Shown: in pieces, positions 1 to 8,697 of the stretch
Position numbering within the stretch: position 1 is the stretch's first letter
Layout: every line of letters begins with the position of its first letter
IMG/VR virus record: IMGVR_UViG_3300042892_005180
Location: 1-64,000 of that record
DNA from: a virus
Lineage: Duplodnaviria; Heunggongvirae; Uroviricota; Caudoviricetes
Reading direction: 5' to 3' (one strand)
Length of the DNA: 64,000 nt
Translations under genes and position numbers: made by a program
The notes under the pieces: model-generated
Told to the model about the DNA's origin: nothing
What the model saw: only the letters and a program-made list of their open reading frames with translations
The model's database searches: none

Positions 1-730
1 GCCCGAAAGCGAAGCAGCCCTGAAGCGATATTTCGCCAAGTTCGAAATGCCCGTCTACGTCTTCTTCCTCAATGACGACTCCGGCATCGACATCGCTCGA
101 AACTACCTCGACTTCGGTGCCGTGTTCAACCCTGACAGCGTCAAGTTCCCAAACCACAGGAATACCGGCATCTGGCAGGCCCTAGGCAAGGCGATCACCA
201 ACCGGATTGGCGATGTCCAGAGCCAGCATCCCAACGCCCTCATCGTCATCCTGACCCACAACGAAGGCGGAGCCAAACGGCACCCCATGACGCCGTGGAT
301 GATTGTCCACCGGATGGCACACGCGATGATCGATAGGTCGAACATCAACTTTCACTCGATCTACCACTCGCCGATGTTCGCTATCGCGGAAGCCTATCGG
401 GGCGACCCCCGTACAGGTGGGCACGTCGAGAAGGACGACATCTACGAAGTCCTGGAAGCGATCTGCACGTTCCGGGCGGCTCGCGAAGGCAACATTCTCG
501 GCGGCGAGCAACTCGAAATTGTCTGCGAACTCTTCACCCAGTATATGGTGCGCGGTCACGTCATCCTCGAACTGCCGGAGTTCATGACTCTGGGTGGCAA
601 GAAGTTGCCCCGCCCCACCGAAGACCTTCACGCATCCGCCCAGTCGGCTCTCAGGTACATTGCCGAGAAAGTTAACGAGAAGTTCGCCAAAATGATCGAG
701 CACGCGACCGGCAAGGTGATGGTCTGCTAG
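1..730 (+). CDS. Family-A paralog (conserved N-x-G..P-x-T-x-W...H-R-x-x-H-A block), 5' end outside the window
   Basis: The ORF is open to position 1 with no in-frame stop upstream of the first ATG at 47. The block ALIVILTHNEGGAKRHPMTPWMIVHRMAHAM aligns with the paralogs at 26323..27306 and 51030..51875. Confidence 0.6.
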   Translation, partial: PESEAALKRYFAKFEMPVYVFFLNDDSGIDIARNYLDFGAVFNPDSVKFPNHRNTGIWQALGKAITNRIGDVQSQHPNALIVILTHNEGGAKRHPMTPWMIVHRMAHAMIDRSNINFHSIYHSPMFAIAEAYRGDPRTGGHVEKDDIYEVLEAICTFRAAREGNILGGEQLEIVCELFTQYMVRGHVILELPEFMTLGGKKLPRPTEDLHASAQSALRYIAEKVNEKFAKMIEHATGKVMVC

Positions 731-2013: not shown

Positions 2014-2442
2014 ATGCGCGATCTCATCACCCTCGTCGAAGCCCTCAACACCAATGCGGAAGTCACCCCCTTCCAGGACCCCGATATCTCCGGGCATGAA
2101 TTTACAGTCGGGGGTCGCAAATATGTGGTCGCCTACTCCGACGACGGTGAGAACGAATACTACATGAGCTTCACTGGCGAGGACGACCGTGGTCGCCAGA
2201 CCGCCATGCTGCTAGGTCATAACGCCCCCTTCAAGGTCTTCAGCGGCGTCGTGTCTTCGATGCTTCGTGTGATCGCAGAAAGGGAGCCTGAAGAGATCAG
2301 GTTCTCCGTCGATAACCGCGAGGAAAAGCGCGCAGCCGCATATGATCGTCTCCTGGATGCGGCGGAAAAGAATGGCGTGATGCCGGATGGTTACGTCTGG
2401 GACCGCGATCAGAACTTCAACTACCGCATCTTCCGCCGCTAA
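2014..2442 (+). CDS. Leader-family protein (MRDLITLVE..), putative capsid-targeted cargo
   Basis: ATG at 2014 is preceded by ATAAATACctg. The N-terminus MRDLITLVE matches the recurring leader. The upstream part of the tool ORF is antisense junk. Confidence 0.7.
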   Translation: MRDLITLVEALNTNAEVTPFQDPDISGHEFTVGGRKYVVAYSDDGENEYYMSFTGEDDRGRQTAMLLGHNAPFKVFSGVVSSMLRVIAEREPEEIRFSVDNREEKRAAAYDRLLDAAEKNGVMPDGYVWDRDQNFNYRIFRR

Positions 2443-2449
2443 ATATCGG

Positions 2450-3193
2450 ATGCGCGATCTCATCAATCTCATCGAACAGAACGACGATTACGACTATTCT
2501 CGATGGGGTGATGACGACGAGGGTGCCGAGCCCCATGAGGCCGACTCTCTGAAGAAACTCTGGCCGAAGGATGTGGTCAACATTCCAGAATTCCAGCAGT
2601 GGTTCGCCGGTTCGAAAGTTGTTGATGAACGGGGTCTTCCGATTCTGGTTCATCGCGGCCGAGCCCAACGATGGTCGGTGATGCCGACCGGCCATGCGGA
2701 GAAACTCAGACAGGCTTTCGAACGAGACGGTTTGATGAAAAGCTTTTCGAAAGAAATGGAGTTCGCTGATCGAATGGGTGACGTCGCGTGGTTCACCGAT
2801 GACGAATTCGTCGCGCACGGCTACATGGACGGTGCCGAAGAGGGGGACGTCCTGGAAGCCTATTTGTGCCTCAAGAACCCGCTCGATCTCCGACTGGAAA
2901 GCATCGGACAAGAAGAGGCCGAACGCATCATGACCGCTATTCGCGGCGAGGCTGTCAGCCTGAACGGCGAATGGTCCCGTCCTGCCAAAGTCCTTGCCGA
3001 CAAAATCGTCTGGGACAACTCGGTCGTGGTCGCGTGGGCGAGAGCGAACGGCTATGACGGCTTGATGCACAACGACACCTGCCTCTATGGGCGCCACGTC
3101 CATCACTCCTACGTGGCCTTCCGTCCTGATCAGATCAAAGCCGCCGCCAATACCGGAGCGTTCAGCAAGACTGACGTGAACATCCACCGATGA
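2450..3193 (+). CDS. Leader-family protein (MRDLINLIE..) with C-terminal GYDG..SYV.F.P.QIK domain
   Basis: CTAAATATcggATG sits upstream. The C-terminal block ANGYDGLMHNDTCLYGRHVHHSYVAFRPDQIK is paralogous to RHGYDGFAYTNAVEDPGHTSYVTFHPGQIK in the 6757 gene. Confidence 0.7.
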   Translation: MRDLINLIEQNDDYDYSRWGDDDEGAEPHEADSLKKLWPKDVVNIPEFQQWFAGSKVVDERGLPILVHRGRAQRWSVMPTGHAEKLRQAFERDGLMKSFSKEMEFADRMGDVAWFTDDEFVAHGYMDGAEEGDVLEAYLCLKNPLDLRLESIGQEEAERIMTAIRGEAVSLNGEWSRPAKVLADKIVWDNSVVVAWARANGYDGLMHNDTCLYGRHVHHSYVAFRPDQIKAAANTGAFSKTDVNIHR

Positions 3194-3597
3194 GAGACCT
3201 GATCGCAATCGTCGAGGAATGGTGCCACCAGACCAAGCACGGTGTTGACGTGTTCAAAAACCCGTCGCGCCAAGAACTCATGCGCGAAATACAAAAAGAC
3301 GAATATGGTCAGGTGCGCTGCATAGTCTTGCCAGAAGACCTGTACGTGTTCAGCACCGATATCATTCATCTCGCGTGTGCGGATTCTTTGGGCCTATCTC
3401 ACGATATCATTGGCAGAATCTTCCTTGACAAAAAAGGCCCGTTCATCAATCGCGATGATGACATCGCAACGGTGGGCAAGCCGGGTGGCTCAGAAAATCT
3501 TTGGAACATTCAGCAGCGGGAAAATGTTGACCGCTACTGCGTGGACCACCCGATTCTGTCTCGCCTCTATCCCAACTATGTCCTGGAGGTTCGCTGA
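3190..3597 (+). CDS. Leader-family protein (MRDLIAIVE..)
   Basis: Leader motif at the N-terminus. The start overlaps the upstream stop, indicating translational coupling. Confidence 0.65.
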   Translation: MRDLIAIVEEWCHQTKHGVDVFKNPSRQELMREIQKDEYGQVRCIVLPEDLYVFSTDIIHLACADSLGLSHDIIGRIFLDKKGPFINRDDDIATVGKPGGSENLWNIQQRENVDRYCVDHPILSRLYPNYVLEVR

Positions 3598-4376
3598 TGC
3601 ATCCCTGGACTCTTGAGAACGCGAAAGCGTTCGTCGCCGATCTTCAGTCTCGTGTTCGCGGCTACGACCTGGAGATCGTGGGCGGCGTCATCCGTAAGGG
3701 CTACAGCGACAAGGACGTCGATATCGTCCTGACCAAGAACGCCGAGTTCAGCCATGCCGATGAGGCGGCCGATGCGATGCAGGCCATGGGTGCCGCATTC
3801 AAGGGCCGCATCGACAAAATCCCCATGGAGGGATGGTTCCTCGCTGACGGTCGCAGGGTCGATTTCTTCTATGCGGAGAAGGGCGACAAGCGGAAGCGCA
3901 GGCCCGTCGTGGAGACCACGATGCGGGACCTCATCATGCTAGCCGAGTCGGCCTCGCTGCCAGAGTTCGTCTACCATGGCACCATCATGCGTCTCTGGAC
4001 TGCCGCGCACACTGGCTCCACCAATCTCTTCCTGGCAAGAGATCGCGATGAGGCGGAGAGCTACGCAGATCGTTCATACGAGAATGGTTGTCAGACCGAA
4101 CTCAACGACGAAGGACATTTCCCATACGACCCCGAGTCGACTCCCATCATCGTCGAGTTTCGTCTCGCCGATCTCATGGCTGATTCCACGCTGGCGTTCG
4201 ACTACGACTGGGGCTGGGAAGACGCGGCGGACGGAACGACGTGGCAGCAATCTCTGGCCGAGGTAGGCTCCTTCGTCGTCACCGGCTTCACGGACGGGCA
4301 CCGGAAACTTGGCAAGGTCGCGCTCGCCTATCCCGAGTATCACGCTGAGCAAATGGCATTGCTTTCACAGCCCTGA
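3597..4376 (+). CDS. Minimal Pol-beta-type nucleotidyltransferase fused in frame to an internal leader (MRDLIMLAE at nt 3921) plus an H-G-T-motif domain
   Basis: GGAGG-8-ATG start. The G[GS]x9DxD nucleotidyltransferase signature is GGVIRKGYSDKDVDIVL. The second half starts TTMRDLIMLAESASLPEFVYHGT, so this looks like a fusion of two cassette units. Confidence 0.6.
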   Translation: MHPWTLENAKAFVADLQSRVRGYDLEIVGGVIRKGYSDKDVDIVLTKNAEFSHADEAADAMQAMGAAFKGRIDKIPMEGWFLADGRRVDFFYAEKGDKRKRRPVVETTMRDLIMLAESASLPEFVYHGTIMRLWTAAHTGSTNLFLARDRDEAESYADRSYENGCQTELNDEGHFPYDPESTPIIVEFRLADLMADSTLAFDYDWGWEDAADGTTWQQSLAEVGSFVVTGFTDGHRKLGKVALAYPEYHAEQMALLSQP

Positions 4377-4392
4377 TCTCTATACTGCACCG

Positions 4393-4842
4393 ATGGATAA
4401 GATCGTCGGATATTCCCTCCAGCCCATCTATGGGCCAGATTCGAACACGACCAACTGTCTCGCGACTGGCGAACCTATTCCGAGTCGCATACTCGGCGAT
4501 GCCCTGTCATTGGAGTTTGTCCGCAAGCTCCGCGCCGAGCGGGAAATCAAGAAGTTCCTGGTCGCCTTGAGCGAGAAGATTCCCGAGTATGCTTGTCGCC
4601 ACGGTAGCTCGACTGACTATGACCGCAAACGCGACTATTGGTGGTTGAGCTTCAACGTCGGCGTTCAGGTTGTTGCTTCATACGACCCCGAGGTCGGTTT
4701 CGGTCTTCGTGAGCCCTTGGGCGAGGACGAGGAAGAACCCGACCAATACGACCCGTGGAGCCAGGAGCCCGTTCTCGTCACCAAGGACCCCGAGGAAGCC
4801 GCGCAGTTCTGCACTCAGTGGGTCCCCGCCCGCTACTGGTAA
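4393..4842 (+). CDS. hypothetical protein (acidic C-terminus)
   Basis: 150-aa ORF with a TATACT-like element 6 nt upstream of ATG (tctCTATACTgcaccgATG). Confidence 0.45.
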   Translation: MDKIVGYSLQPIYGPDSNTTNCLATGEPIPSRILGDALSLEFVRKLRAEREIKKFLVALSEKIPEYACRHGSSTDYDRKRDYWWLSFNVGVQVVASYDPEVGFGLREPLGEDEEEPDQYDPWSQEPVLVTKDPEEAAQFCTQWVPARYW

Positions 4843-5195
4843 TCGGCTTGGTGATCGGTTGCCAGCATGAATGCCGCGCAGTCTTTCTGCTGCTGGAATA
4901 CGATATACATCGGATACGAGTAGGGCCCCATGGTGACGGGCTGCCAAAAGATCGTCGCCCTTTCCTTGACGTTTTCAGCCAGCCACGCGAACTCAGCATC
5001 ATGATGCTTGGCTGACCCTTCGGGTGTTTTCCTTTCTGATGAAAACTGGAGCTTGGCCTTAATGTTGGCCAGCGTTCCACCAGGAATCCTCGGAGATGAT
5101 CTCACCAGCGTGACGGTGTAGTCGGGTAGGTACAGATGAAATTCTTTCGGCGCCTCGAAAATCGGCATACCGTGAACGTGCGCGATGGCGGTCAT
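4833..5195 (-). CDS. hypothetical protein
   Basis: Start MTAIAH overlaps the upstream stop as ATGA. Confidence 0.4.
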   Translation of the reverse strand: MTAIAHVHGMPIFEAPKEFHLYLPDYTVTLVRSSPRIPGGTLANIKAKLQFSSERKTPEGSAKHHDAEFAWLAENVKERATIFWQPVTMGPYSYPMYIVFQQQKDCAAFMLATDHQADYQ

Positions 5196-5590
5196 TGTGA
5201 CCAATACCTTTCGGGGTCATCGTGGGGGCCGAACATGAGCAGGAGTTTGGCGACGTCTTTCTGGTCCCGAATGACCAGTGACCCGTTGGTGGTGAATCCA
5301 GTGACGAACTCAGCACTGGGCGCGATCTCTTGTAGCCATGCCCACTCCGCAGATTCCTGGAACGAAGTCAGCCGATTCCATTTGAAGAGGTTGAAGCTCG
5401 TCGTGAGCGCGTCGTCGTCGGTTTCTCGCACGAATGCGATTTCGGCCACCATCACGTTCTTGCGCCGATGATTGGTCAGTACGGGAATGACCTCTCCACG
5501 GCGGGTCTTGATCATCGGCCGATCATAGAGAAACACCCAACGGAGACTGGCGGGGTCACGAGATTTCAGCATAGGAGACGAATAGGCCAT
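5192..5590 (-). CDS. hypothetical protein
   Basis: 132-aa ORF divergent from the 5614 gene. Confidence 0.4.
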   Translation of the reverse strand: MAYSSPMLKSRDPASLRWVFLYDRPMIKTRRGEVIPVLTNHRRKNVMVAEIAFVRETDDDALTTSFNLFKWNRLTSFQESAEWAWLQEIAPSAEFVTGFTTNGSLVIRDQKDVAKLLLMFGPHDDPERYWSQ

Positions 5591-5613
5591 TTGGTCAAAC
5601 GAGTAAATAGGTG

Positions 5614-6039
5614 ATGCGCTATCTCGACATCATCTGCGAGCAAGCCCCATCGGGCAAAGTTGTCAGCACCAGCATGCTGGTGAAACGCTACGGTGGCTCG
5701 TTCCTCCCGTATGCTCAACTCCCCGAGCCAGCGCAGAAAGCCCTTACGAGGTGGATGGTCTATGAGGGCGAGAACACCCACTACAAGCGGTCCAGTTACG
5801 GCTACGTCGAAGTACCCATTGATGACCTGATGAAGATCATCTGGAACCAGAATGGTTTCGATGACGGTGTCTCGTTCGAAGAGTTCTGGGGAAAACCGAG
5901 CGGTATGAACCCCAAGGTCTTCAACGAAGTCTGGCCCCTCATTTGGAGCAGCCAAGGGTGGGAAGACGGCATGCACCGACTTGGACACTATCGGAAGCTT
6001 GGGCTGAAGATGATTCCCGTCGTGGGGTCGAGACGTTGA
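5614..6039 (+). CDS. Leader-like protein (MRYLDIICE..)
   Basis: GTAAATAGgtgATG upstream. The N-terminus MRYLDIICE fits the leader pattern, ending I-x-E. Confidence 0.55.
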   Translation: MRYLDIICEQAPSGKVVSTSMLVKRYGGSFLPYAQLPEPAQKALTRWMVYEGENTHYKRSSYGYVEVPIDDLMKIIWNQNGFDDGVSFEEFWGKPSGMNPKVFNEVWPLIWSSQGWEDGMHRLGHYRKLGLKMIPVVGSRR

Positions 6040-6539
6040 TGCGCGACCTCATTGACCTCATCGAAGAAGCTCGGCCGATCACGTCCGTGGACGTCGATCA
6101 GCTTCCCGCATCCGCCAAAGCCGACATCCTGGACATGTTCCAGAGCGACAACGGACCACCGGCCTTTGAAGAGTTCTGGATGGCCGACAATGGCATCATG
6201 TCCTTCAACGACACCTACATTTCGCAGTTCATTTTCGGCGATGAAAACCTGAACGTTCAGGGCGAGGGCGGTGGGCTCTTCATGGTCAACTGCCTGACTC
6301 TGGACCCACGCGTCCTCTATAGTCCTCGCCGCTCAGTCTCTGATCTGGCCGTAGACAAATACGCCGCGATGACCACGAAGGCTCCTCCGGTCCTGGTCCG
6401 TAAGGTCTCGAAGGGATGGAAGCTTGTCGAGGGCGGTCACCGGCTCGCGGCTGCCGTGAAGCGGGGCGACACCTCTATCGACGCAATCGACGTCAGCGTC
6501 TTCTTCAACATGACGGTCGAGGATTGGCGAGAACTATGA
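6039..6539 (+). CDS. Leader-family protein (MRDLIDLIE..) with ParB/Srx-like nuclease motif
   Basis: Start overlaps the upstream TGA. KLVEGGHRLAAAVKRG matches the ParB/sulfiredoxin DGxHR..A box. Confidence 0.7.
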   Translation: MRDLIDLIEEARPITSVDVDQLPASAKADILDMFQSDNGPPAFEEFWMADNGIMSFNDTYISQFIFGDENLNVQGEGGGLFMVNCLTLDPRVLYSPRRSVSDLAVDKYAAMTTKAPPVLVRKVSKGWKLVEGGHRLAAAVKRGDTSIDAIDVSVFFNMTVEDWREL

Positions 6540-6757
6540 GACACCTGATCGACCTCATTGAAAGCACCATGCGACCCGAGACATTCGTGAATGAACTCGG
6601 AAATACCATCATGGTCGAAGTCACCGAGAAAGAAATCGAAGGCGTGGACGGCGTTCTCATTCACATTGAAGGGCCGACCTCCGAAACGGACAACCACGTT
6701 ACCCGCATGGAGGCTGAAAAGATTTTCGATCACCTGAAAGCGGTGCTGGGAAAATGA
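6536..6757 (+). CDS. Leader-family small protein (MRHLIDLIE..)
   Basis: ATGA overlap with the upstream gene and a leader at the N-terminus. Confidence 0.6.
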   Translation: MRHLIDLIESTMRPETFVNELGNTIMVEVTEKEIEGVDGVLIHIEGPTSETDNHVTRMEAEKIFDHLKAVLGK

Positions 6758-8097
6758 TGCGCCATCTCATTGATTTAATCGAAAGCGTAGACGAAATCGT
6801 CTGGCACGGTTCTCCAGACAACTTTGACATCACGCAAGCGGGTCCGATGACCCATTTCGGTTCGAAGAAATCTGCTGCTCATCGTATCCACACTAAGCGG
6901 GCGGAGTTGACGCTCGGTCGCCCTCGCTCCATCACGACCGGATATCTCTTTCCGGTGCGTCTTGCTATCCACAAACCCCTGACTATTAACGACCGGCAGG
7001 GATTGAGCCACACTCCATACAAGCTCACCGATATGCTCCACTACGACCTCAAGGCGATCTCGTCTGACGAGCGAACGGAGATCATGGCAGAGCAGTGTCG
7101 GTTCGAGAAAATCGCAGAAGTGCTCTCCCGTCATGGCTATGATGGTTTCGCATACACGAACGCGGTCGAGGACCCCGGCCACACCTCTTATGTGACTTTT
7201 CATCCCGGCCAGATCAAACCTGCGGGGCCGACTGAGACCTACGTCCAGCACGGTGCCTTCAACGGCAATCTTGTAGAATCGGTAGCGATGACACCAACGC
7301 AGGCGGTTTGCGCTCTGCGAGATGAATGGATAGCTGAGCAAAACACAACTGCTTACGCGATCAACAGAGGCCAGTGCTTCGAATTTGCCGACGCCTTGGA
7401 GGAAGCATACCCAGACCTCTTCGTATCTATCGAAATAGGTAATATTTTCCGCTACGAGGGCAAATACAACGACGACCCCGTTGGATTCGACGAAGCCCTG
7501 ATTGCCCAGCATTGGCCGAATATCAAACCATATCCGGGGCTGACCTGGGAACAGATGTTCCAAGACTGCGATCTGTCTTGGCCCGGTACGCACGGGTGGG
7601 CATTCTGCGCACAGACCGGCCTGTCCTATGATGTCGAGACCCCCGAGGGCGTCAGCAATCCTTTCGACCTCCCGTTTTTCGATTCCTACAAGGCTCATGG
7701 AGCGAAGGTGCTGGCAGCAAAGCCCGTCACCGAGGAGTTTATGGGTGGATTCGAGGTCAACAGCATCTATGGACCCCAGGTCGTCGAGGTCTACCACAAC
7801 CCTTCCCGCAAAGAATTCGACACCATCCGTGCGCAGCACAAAGCCGTCCGGGGTTTCATCGACGCCGACATCTATATCTGGGACGCCCATCTGGCCGACC
7901 ATGGGATGGTGGGCAATAAGTTCAACATGAGTGGCCTTCACGCCGAGTGGCGTGACGACGGCTACCTGATCATCAACTGGAACGATTCCTGGAACGGCGC
8001 CTATGGCTACGACGACTTCGACCACGTCAAGCGCAGCATTGAAGAGAACCCCCGGATGAAGCGTCTCCTGATCGGCTTCGAGGTTGTGCGATCATGA
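6757..8097 (+). CDS. Leader-family multidomain protein (MRHLIDLIE..) with a PARP-like W-H-G-S N-domain and GYDG domain
   Basis: IVWHGSPDNFDITQAG and TGYLFPVRLAIH resemble the PARP1 LWHGSRTTNFAGILSQG and TGYMFGKGIYFA blocks. It shares the GYDG..QIK domain with the 2450 gene. Confidence 0.65.
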   Translation: MRHLIDLIESVDEIVWHGSPDNFDITQAGPMTHFGSKKSAAHRIHTKRAELTLGRPRSITTGYLFPVRLAIHKPLTINDRQGLSHTPYKLTDMLHYDLKAISSDERTEIMAEQCRFEKIAEVLSRHGYDGFAYTNAVEDPGHTSYVTFHPGQIKPAGPTETYVQHGAFNGNLVESVAMTPTQAVCALRDEWIAEQNTTAYAINRGQCFEFADALEEAYPDLFVSIEIGNIFRYEGKYNDDPVGFDEALIAQHWPNIKPYPGLTWEQMFQDCDLSWPGTHGWAFCAQTGLSYDVETPEGVSNPFDLPFFDSYKAHGAKVLAAKPVTEEFMGGFEVNSIYGPQVVEVYHNPSRKEFDTIRAQHKAVRGFIDADIYIWDAHLADHGMVGNKFNMSGLHAEWRDDGYLIINWNDSWNGAYGYDDFDHVKRSIEENPRMKRLLIGFEVVRS

Positions 8098-8208
8098 AGT
8101 TTGTGCCGAGGAAAATCCCTCACCTGATCGCGACCAAGATCGAAGACGTGTGCCCCATGCAGCCGCCTCCGAAGCCCGTCAAGCCGCGTCGTGACTGGCT
8201 GCACCCCG

Positions 8209-8277
8209 TTTACCCTATACGGTAAAAACGGGCGTCTAGGGGCCCTTCAGGGCCGGAATTTACCCTATACGGTAAAA
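8209..8277. repeat. Two copies of a 19-bp palindrome TTTACC-CTATAC-GGTAAA(A), about 50 bp apart, in a 93-bp intergenic gap
   Basis: Direct sequence observation. Each copy is a perfect 6-bp inverted repeat around CTATAC, which is the classic two-site operator geometry. Confidence 0.6.
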
Positions 8278-8403
8278 TCAGACGTCGGTGCGCTCTTCGA
8301 TGTTGCCGAAGCGGTCCACGCGAAGCATCGGAAGCACGTAGCCATCGGTCTCGTCCTTCGCAATTCCTTCGGCCATCTTGAACGTCGTGGGGCCAACGGC
8401 GAC

Positions 8404-8673
8404 GTGGCCGCCGCTTCTGGGGATGATTGCGTGTCAACGGCGGCTACCAGATTTGATCTCAAAGTCGAAATCGTTGGTGGCGTTGCCAAGCGGGGGTTCA
8501 GCAATAATGATCTCGACCTGTTGGTCACAGGAGGAGAGAACGCTGACCTCGAAGCCTTCCTCAACAGCCTGCAACGTCTGCAAATCAGCCATGAGCCCAT
8601 GTCAGTGCCCGGTGGGCCGATAGCGAGACTTTTCCTTGCCGATGATCGGGAAATCGACATTTTCTACCGTTGA
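8404..8673 (+). CDS. Minimal nucleotidyltransferase paralog; start uncertain (possible GTG)
   Basis: VEIVGGVAKRGFSNNDLDLLV ... DIFY parallels the 3597 nucleotidyltransferase (LEIVGGVIRKGYSDKDVDIVL ... DFFY). There is no in-frame ATG after the palindromes. It may be a pseudogene or start at an alternative codon. Confidence 0.35.
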   Translation: MAAASGDDCVSTAATRFDLKVEIVGGVAKRGFSNNDLDLLVTGGENADLEAFLNSLQRLQISHEPMSVPGGPIARLFLADDREIDIFYR

Positions 8674-8697
8674 GCCCAGCAGGGGGTTTCAGATAGC

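Follow-up and report, generated by a model that had tools for sequence, protein, structure and literature searches.

In phage T4, the internal proteins and the ADP-ribosyltransferase Alt are bound to the scaffolding core by a capsid-targeting peptide, which the protease gp21 removes (PMC5694885). This capsid-targeting sequence, MKTYQEFIAE, is about 10 residues long and ends in h-x-E, where h is a hydrophobic residue (PMC8442874). L-x-E sites at internal and C-terminal positions are cut by gp21 as well (PMC5694885). A second described group, the injected polyvalent proteins, has a domain repertoire that matches the cargo of the gene array examined here (Iyer et al. 2017, PMC5512222), and these proteins have been predicted to be delivered together with the DNA and then processed into separate units (PMC5512222). 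Here we describe the open reading frame (ORF) 3597..4376 in positions 1 to 64,000 of the IMG/VR virus record IMGVR_UViG_3300042892_005180, a stretch of 64,000 nucleotides (nt) referred to below as the window. The ORF joins a minimal nucleotidyltransferase, with the fold of the Pol-beta superfamily, to a domain predicted to have the ADP-ribosyltransferase (ART) fold, and an intact nine-residue leader peptide lies between the two. We consider it likely that this ORF is a genuine and recent read-through fusion of two adjacent, translationally coupled cassette genes.

The ORF is part of a hypervariable array on the plus strand (2014-15034), in which at least 11 genes share a nine-residue leader, M-R-x-h-h-x-h-h-E, placed on unrelated domains (ART-PolyVal at 2450 and 6757, ParB-like at 6039, and several of no known family). 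As with IPI, IPII, IPIII and Alt of T4, a peptide of 9-10 residues with the form M-basic-x-aromatic/aliphatic-x-x-h-h-(x)-E is common to unrelated small proteins of a variable cluster; the array leader likewise ends in [LIV]-x-E, the motif cut by gp21, and ADP-ribosyltransferases are found among its cargo, as Alt is in T4. On the other hand, the array cargo shows no sequence homology to the T4 internal proteins, and the phage is a jumbo phage of another lineage; moreover, L115-A-E117 of the fused protein belongs to a leader in an internal position (residues 109-117), for which no T4 counterpart has been described. The polyvalent proteins provide the second comparison (PMC5512222). Like them, the fused ORF bears two conflict-type enzyme domains in one polypeptide, and the repertoire of the array comprises ART, minimal Pol-beta nucleotidyltransferase, GNAT, ParB-like and 2H domains. 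Unlike them, the fused ORF has two domains only and lacks a zincin-like metallopeptidase for self-processing, no MuF, SNF2 helicase or zincin-like metallopeptidase is found by Pfam in either the ORF or its operon, there is no late or structural context, and the domains in this jumbo-phage clade are mostly unbundled into single-domain, individually leader-tagged genes. We know of no described counterpart to a polypeptide that keeps such a leader intact at an internal position.

The start ATG of the fused ORF overlaps the TGA of the preceding gene, 3190..3597 (GCTGATGC), with a GGAGG located 7 nt upstream of it. The true N-terminus of the protein, MHPWTLEN, is not leader-like, and residues 1-93 read MHPWTLENAKAF...EIVGGVIRKGYSDKDVDIVL...GRRVDFFY. 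An earlier note on this DNA, made by a model from the letters and a list of ORFs, had reported a single ORF that continues in frame at 3921 into a leader and a YHGT domain, and the description is exact: no stop lies between the nucleotidyltransferase part and the downstream leader and ...FVYHGT part. The junction DNA (within 3850-3990 of the window) reads ...GTGGAGACCACGATGCGG..., and after the leader the protein runs as SASLPEFVYHGT... from S118 through residue 259. In AlphaFold2 models, both halves appear as confident, independent folds, with low confidence only for residues 94-108 and the leader. Foldseek against BFVD gave only weak matches, to proteins of Bacillus phage G. About 30 low-confidence residues, composed of a basic tail and the intact leader, thus separate the two folded domains (Table 1).

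How the two modules are arranged elsewhere is central to the proposed fusion. A phmmer search with the whole fused protein against 1.84 billion representatives returned 62 clusters at E <= 1e-3 (P numbers below denote homologous proteins, and L numbers loci). Both halves are covered by a single cluster, the query's own, and by none of the other 61. Relatives of the C-half are mostly stand-alone proteins of 115-150 residues with the leader first (MRQFMNLVTE, MRDIMILVE, MRKWIDLFE, MRQFINIVE, MRNYITILE and others), while some lie behind a GNAT-like domain and have a single N-terminal leader (P0010, P0019, P0034 and the protein on L014). Relatives of the N-half are also mostly stand-alone, at 94-122 residues; P0008 consists of a leader and a nucleotidyltransferase, and P0048 begins MHAWTL, comparable to the MHPWTL of the fused protein. 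The same module additionally occurs as a domain of P0033 (325 residues), of P0003, and of P0061, a protein of 664 residues with two HxT[VA] motifs resembling those of 2H phosphoesterases. Of 63 proteins in all, 20 carry the leader, at residues 1-9 in 19 of these 20 and at residue 109 in the fused protein alone. The suggestion of the earlier note that two units had been joined, by recombination or by loss of a stop, is therefore well supported by the comparison with relatives, in which the modules are kept on separate polypeptides, the leader is otherwise always N-terminal, and no relative has an undivided protein.

The closest nucleotidyltransferase relative, P0003, places the junction precisely. 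This protein is 75% identical to residues 2-106 of the fused protein, is built as leader, ART-PolyVal domain and nucleotidyltransferase, and ends ...AEKGDKRKKRKVID-stop (KRKKRKVID-stop). Its TGA aligns with codon 107 of the fused ORF, two codons before the leader Met (BLASTP; DNA of L004), and the gene that follows P0003 has no leader. On the other side of the junction, P0002 is 56% identical to residues 103-256, with its ART module directly behind a leader; upstream of that leader lies a leader and ParB-like gene whose TGA overlaps the leader ATG, and the called start of P0002, MAPEREIL, is an over-extension. P0004 and P0008 are monocistronic and lie behind a TAAATA-N4-ATG motif, P0004 on a 522-kb scaffold. 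Between P0003 and the window, identity is only 24% for the ART domains (that of P0003 against the ART-PolyVal neighbour) and 75% for the nucleotidyltransferase; the latter has therefore moved between contexts as a module, and its boundaries are sharp (HPWT... to ...KRKRR). The same difference in identity led us to reject an ancestral P0003 order that was split here by insertion of 3190..3597.

The age of the event is suggested by the state of the leader, which is intact in the fused protein and is absent or a relic internally in other multidomain relatives, pointing to a recent origin. As possible relics, P0033 has RREFLTVLL about 14 residues past its nucleotidyltransferase core, and P0010 has MESLDEDAE ahead of its ART module; their reading as decayed internal leaders is suggestive only. 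A further candidate was 'ALLES', with which the ART module of P0002 ends. We rejected it as a decayed leader, the same residues forming the conserved, confidently predicted C-terminal helix of this module in the window protein. In P0043 (301 residues), two ART modules stand in tandem, with MKFTARFLQTA at the N-terminus and MQFKAKFLRKA internally, and, to judge from this repeated peptide, P0043 shows that tandem fusions of this type recur.

A unique fusion in a metagenome assembly can be an error, and on this general prior a frameshift or a miscalled base might have erased a real stop between two genes. We regard this as very improbable. At least six contigs, which come from no fewer than four independent samples and from two assembly pipelines (Logan and JGI), encode the identical 259-residue product; L002 and L003 are 100% identical to the window, and L001, taken from a contig of 119.5 kb, is a strain variant with 16 single-nucleotide polymorphisms relative to the window over 10.4 kb, none of them within the fused gene. 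No homopolymer longer than 3 nt occurs near the junction. The upstream frame is fixed by the fold to residue 93 and by colinearity with P0003 to residue 106, and the downstream frame is fixed from residue 109, so that any error would need to fall inside 6 nt. There is no sign of a sequencing error, and the fusion is confirmed as genuine and not an assembly or sequencing artefact.

For the origin of the fused gene, we propose that the upstream unit was a minimal nucleotidyltransferase of Pol-beta fold that lacked a leader and had its GG...DxD...D signature intact, and that the downstream unit was a standard leader and ART-fold gene. A small change at a junction of the ATGA or TGATG type would have removed the stop and brought the two frames into register, and the outcome would be a flexible segment of about 30 residues between two independently folding enzymes in a protein of 259 residues made from the ATG at 3597. 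The remaining non-promoter junctions of the array are all ATGA or TGATG overlaps. The possible start at ATG 3921 may still initiate and yield an ordinary leader-ART protein of 151 residues. If this start is independent, the locus would still be two genes, and the lost stop would be a neutral C-terminal extension on some nucleotidyltransferase molecules, a possibility that we consider real and yet unlikely. The GGAG at 3911-3914 is near-optimally spaced from ATG 3921, a Shine-Dalgarno-like core was found at only 3597 and 3921 among 13 array starts checked, and from its own Met onward the downstream module is a complete, ordinary family member. Against this, such a core precedes 8.4% of all ATGs in the window by chance, the GGAG is also constrained by the V-E codons that it encodes, most leader genes of the array lack a Shine-Dalgarno sequence, so that initiation dependent on it is not the rule of the array, and ribosomes elongating from 3597 would tend to occlude 3921.

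Several points weigh against the read-through fusion as we have set it out. Searches of viral and metagenome contigs with the protein and with a 4-sequence profile found no close relative with the same gene order (the profile gave no match in viral contigs and two loci in metagenome contigs, both leader-GNAT-like-ART), and we can therefore only infer the ancestral junction and the exact fusing mutation. The 10-nt identity CCCGTCGTGG upstream of the leaders at 3921 and 6039 is not significant, since about 8% of random window sets contain such a match; derivation of the 3921 junction from a 6039-like one by a 5-nt deletion (shared CCCGTCGTGG plus AGAC) was rejected on the same ground, a shared 10-mer among 11 upstream windows arising in about 8% of random trials. 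With the background frequency of Shine-Dalgarno-like cores given above, the GGAG before 3921 is suggestive only. No cultured phage carries the modules, so no virion proteomics can be transferred to them: among 50,697 phage records, no match was found by megablast or tblastn for the region and the fused protein or by tblastn for two other array proteins, and none at the nucleotide level for the window. Finally, the family-consensus Tyr of the C-half (LYLT) is Phe here (LFLA), and, because no third catalytic residue can be assigned either, its ART activity is putative only.

The N-half carries the signature V28-G29-G30, nine residues, D40-V-D42-I, and D89 in RVDFFY, in agreement with the superfamily pattern of hG[GS], Dh[DE]h at a distance of 9-13 residues, and a third carboxylate on a neighbouring strand. 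The earlier note had recognised the Pol-beta signature and a paralogue near 8404..8673, and both observations stand. In an alignment of 15 sequences (A2), G29, G35, S37, D40 and D42 are invariant, with W4 and D89 nearly so (D89 in at least 90%). The AlphaFold2 model has a mean predicted local distance difference test score (pLDDT) of 87.6, with residues 1-93 confident and residues 100-108 below 50, and its palm-like alpha-beta-alpha-beta-alpha-beta core superposes on known members of the Pol-beta superfamily. The top 37 matches of the A2 profile to PDB sequences are all Pol beta, aligned on GS...DxD and weak (E 0.08-0.25), and the MTPAP-like_central family matches weakly in only 2 of the 15 family members (best E 0.023). 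The fused protein itself has no Pfam match at E <= 1 and no NCBIfam match at E <= 0.1, phmmer with each half against PDB sequences gave nothing meaningful, and no model of Pfam, PHROG, NCBIfam or PADLOC matches the whole protein or either half. At the level of predicted fold and active site, the N-half is confirmed as a minimal nucleotidyltransferase. Its paralogue in ORF 8191..8673 is 32% identical to residues 25-92 of the fused protein over 69 residues (pairwise E 3e-10). Unlike MNT/MntA of HEPN-MNT, NTox45 and LnuA/ANT, the N-half is matched by no Pfam, NCBIfam or PADLOC model and has a family-specific N-terminal W-T helix. Since no HEPN or other toxin partner lies beside it (Pfam of neighbouring genes; PADLOC, no match), the nucleotidyltransferase does not qualify as an MNT antitoxin, and the antitoxin role that the earlier note had proposed is not supported. 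The other role it offered, an anti-defence candidate, remains a reasonable view in the form of an injected or anti-defence effector.

The downstream domain, noted earlier as an H-G-T domain, can be refined to an ART-fold domain. Its AlphaFold2 model has a mean pLDDT of 91.9, with only the ten leader residues poorly defined (pLDDT 53), and displays the split beta-sheet of the ART fold. The NAD-binding His motif h-h-H-G-[ST] is present as V125-Y-H127-G-T129. In an alignment of 38 sequences (A1), the H, G and T of this motif and a Trp five residues later are invariant, followed by the consensus LYLT.....A..YA and PDWGW, while no acidic residue is invariant in the late strand, the sole near-invariant one being D96 of PDWGW (DYDWGW here). 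ART-PolyVal gives sub-threshold matches in 10 of the 38 family members (best E 0.0017; Pfam gathering threshold 31.2 bits), and Tpt1 (PF01885) in 1 of 38 (E 0.049), with a profile match to 6e3a at E 0.83; neither PF18760 nor PF01885 matches the fused protein itself. Of the domain of about 138 residues, about 81 residues align to the 179-residue Tpt1; the domain consists of the NAD lobe alone and is for this reason no orthologue of Tpt1. In contrast to Tpt1/KptA, it lacks the N-terminal RNA-binding lobe with its Arg/His catalytic residues, and unlike both Tpt1/KptA and ART-PolyVal it has the family-specific PDWGW motif. When it was aligned by hhalign to the neighbouring ART-PolyVal protein (2450..3193), the leader alone aligned. 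From its predicted structure and motifs, the C-half is best described as a new, divergent ART-fold family that is neither Tpt1 nor a bona fide member of PF18760. By analogy, both enzymes of the fused protein would most plausibly be host-modifying or anti-defence effectors, acting through nucleotidylylation and through NAD-dependent ADP-ribosylation of a host protein or nucleic acid.

The leader that separates these domains was searched for with the pattern M-[RK]-x-h-h-x-h-h-E, written post hoc, in the six-frame translation of the window. It has nine matches, all on the plus strand between 2014 and 14594, compared with 0.005-0.025 matches in shuffled sequence, an excess that is far beyond chance and overwhelming despite the post hoc pattern; two weaker copies lie at 5614 and 10891. 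Every copy other than that at 3921 begins a gene: those at 2014, 2450, 5614, 9941 and 14594 lie 4 nt behind a TAAATA, and the others are at stop-start overlaps (ATGA at 3190, 6536 and 10891; TGATG at 6039 and 6757), while the copy at 3921 has neither a TAAATA motif nor a stop. The codon of the leader Arg varies (CGC, CGG, CGT and AGA), with AGA exactly at the ATGA-overlap junctions (3190, 6536, 10891) and CGN elsewhere, so conservation is at the amino-acid and not the DNA level. The leader ends in [LIV]-x-E, in some copies at the exact T4 spacing (MRQFMNLVTE, against MKTYQEFIAE in T4), and the leader is attached to ART, GNAT-like, ParB-like, nucleotidyltransferase and 2H-like domains. By analogy with T4, the leader may be a capsid-targeting propeptide. 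Alternatively, it may have no part in capsid targeting or protease processing. As a short amphipathic helix at the N-terminus, it could mediate assembly with a shared partner, act as a degron or localisation signal, or be required for translating leaderless mRNAs, and its internal copy would then be functionless. In favour of this, many leader genes stand directly behind TAAATA-N4-ATG, which suggests that their mRNAs are leaderless or nearly so, and in such mRNAs the first codons can affect initiation. This alternative is nevertheless rather unlikely in our view, as the peptide is conserved through codon changes for Arg (CGN and AGA), is equally found on coupled genes that have no TAAATA motif, always ends in h-x-E like the substrates of gp21, and is borne by many unrelated enzyme domains typical of injected effectors.

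Among the genes of the window are those for a class I ribonucleotide reductase and for two helicases, one Dda-like and one DnaB-like. The DnaB-like helicase shares 52-56% identity with its counterparts in Pseudomonas phage PA5oct, Sinorhizobium phage Phosso and Agrobacterium phage Atu_ph07, indicating an uncultivated jumbo phage of this T4-related group (group 2.2 of PMC7824862). The surroundings consist of replication and nucleotide-metabolism genes, and the head genes lie outside the window. The phage is thus not T4 itself, whose gp21 the earlier note had cited, but of the PA5oct/Atu_ph07 jumbo type. Its cultured relative PA5oct does encode a head maturation protease of the gp21 family (Peptidase_S77, PF03420; E 5e-24), as part of a T4-like head module in which portal and major capsid protein lie next to it. 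In PA5oct (L013, NC_071039.1), a virion protein of 73 residues detected by tandem mass spectrometry (7921-8142) lies between the portal and the S77 protease and begins MKINDIITEG. The PA5oct major capsid protein (10850-12037) begins MSNRLFESNWAATKSALTEG, with LFE and LTE motifs in its N-terminus. The [LI]-x-E motifs of both proteins are consistent with gp21-like processing in this clade.

If the leader is T4-like, it could draw the full-length fused protein into the prohead, and a cut after LAE117 by a gp21-family protease, to which the flexible segment between the domains would be accessible, could free both enzymes for injection with the DNA; alternatively, the fusion may be no more than a two-domain enzyme that is tolerated. 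In its strongest form, the former would make the ORF a selected polyprotein, in which a functional internal leader targets all 259 residues to the prohead core as a working targeting and cleavage module, an S77-type protease cuts after LAE117, and the nucleotidyltransferase travels as a 'hitch-hiker', so that injection of the DNA would bring in both enzymes. The internal leader is complete and agrees with the consensus, it lies within the low-confidence and presumably exposed segment between the folded domains, the nucleotidyltransferase here lacks the leader that P0008 and P0033 have, and T4 gp21 cleaves internal and C-terminal L-x-E sites such as LTE-619 of Alt (PMC5694885). P0043, with its tandem ART modules and repeated Met-leader-like peptide, provides a second case. 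This natural two-enzyme polyprotein is, even so, an improbable reading by our assessment, and it would require a capsid-targeting sequence to act from an internal position. The arrangement is found in one phage lineage and in none of the 61 other clusters, which argues against a long-standing design; P0003, P0010, P0019, P0034 and the L014 protein each carry one leader, at the N-terminus, and none that is intact further in, indicating that internal leaders are not generally maintained; and the paralogue 8191..8673 and several homologues are leaderless and stand-alone, with no obvious need for packaging.

The fused ORF is the third gene of an operon with the order TAAATA 2440, 2450..3193, 3190..3597, 3597..4376 (the fusion) and 4393..4842 (Table 1). 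The TAAATA-N4-ATG motif at its head occurs 16 times in the window, compared with 0.04 expected, always at the start of an ORF, before leader and non-leader genes alike and on both strands. It also precedes leader genes on unrelated contigs of jumbo phages (L004:457, L005:207, L008:3987, L010:3987 and L014:2495), among them a 522-kb scaffold. From its position, the motif resembles a promoter placed right against the start codon, and the mRNAs would in that case be leaderless or nearly so. The late promoters of T4 (TATAAATA) resemble it and sit further upstream.

Table 1. Features of the fused ORF, its operon and related elements, in window coordinates.
Feature	Coordinates	Strand	Remarks
Operon head: TAAATA-N4-ATG motif (2440-2452) with leader and ART-PolyVal gene (2450..3193)	2440..3193	+	PF18760, E 6.8e-13
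Leader gene, 135 residues, no Pfam family	3190..3597	+	ATGA overlap upstream; TGATG overlap with fused ORF downstream
Fused ORF, 259 residues plus stop	3597..4376	+	ATG start; identical in L001-L003
Minimal nucleotidyltransferase core of predicted Pol-beta fold, residues 1-93	3597..3875	+	motifs W4-T5, G29-G30, S37, D40-x-D42, D89
Basic tail and linker AEKGDKRKRRPVVETT, residues 93-108, predicted disordered	3873..3920	+	pLDDT falls from 68 to 43; comparison with P0003
GGAG, possible Shine-Dalgarno sequence for internal start	3911..3914	+	6 nt upstream of ATG 3921
Internal leader MRDLIMLAE, residues 109-117, ends L-x-E	3921..3947	+	matches N-terminal leaders of array; pLDDT 53
Predicted ART-fold domain, residues 122-259	3960..4373	+	Y126-H127-G128-T129, LFLA...A..YA, DYDWGW
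Last operon gene, 149 residues, no leader, no family match	4393..4842	+	
Paralogous nucleotidyltransferase core in ORF 8191..8673	8464..8667	+	no leader; stop right after DIFYR
TAAATA-N4-ATG sites	2004, 2440, 5604, 9931, 12819, 14584, 18779, 26313, 62569	+	
TAAATA-N4-ATG sites	12237, 21203, 25382, 37365, 50550, 54680, 55119	-	

Other proteins in and around the array are also composed of recurring parts. A domain of the form NPSR..(E/G)..h+G...hYhWD/IDAF..H, with no Pfam match, recurs alone or fused to ART modules, and is located in 3190-3597, in the C-terminal part of 6757-8097, in the N-terminal part of 9941-10894, and at residues ~170-430 of P0002. The leader protein 9941-10894 (plus strand) has a second module of the LYHGT type in its C-terminal half (…PPVLYHGTTPYNAALIVLSG…), also with no Pfam match, which is probably another divergent ART domain. 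A leaderless protein of 227 residues (47-730, plus strand; …HPMTPWMIVHRMAHAMID…) resembles the C-terminal half of P0005, in which this domain stands behind a YHGT ART module (…MPLTPWMILHRMAHAVLD…), a further example of module shuffling. Two minus-strand genes, 9375-9872 and 8698-9372, interrupt the array; by the gene table of the matching contig, one matches RE_Eco29kI together with a faint GIY-YIG match and the other weakly matches DUF7205; from these matches, the former may be a homing endonuclease that aids local shuffling.

The fusion itself is a minor event of one lineage, and the cassette system of leader and TAAATA motif is the more interesting object, a barely described system in which the fusion is a clean case of module shuffling that can be dated. 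Each half of the fused protein defines a sequence family missed by the current models of Pfam, NCBIfam, PHROG and PADLOC. Arrays of small leader-tagged enzyme genes (ART, nucleotidyltransferase, GNAT-like and ParB-like) are found repeatedly in uncultivated jumbo phages, and, if the leader is a capsid-targeting propeptide, these arrays would be large, fast-evolving arsenals of injected host-takeover or anti-defence enzymes, with the fusion illustrating a route from single-domain effectors to polyvalent proteins. If the internal leader works, a capsid-targeting sequence could act inside a polypeptide and carry an upstream passenger; the fused gene is in this respect a natural test of an internal targeting peptide, which would be relevant to the engineering of phage capsids for cargo.

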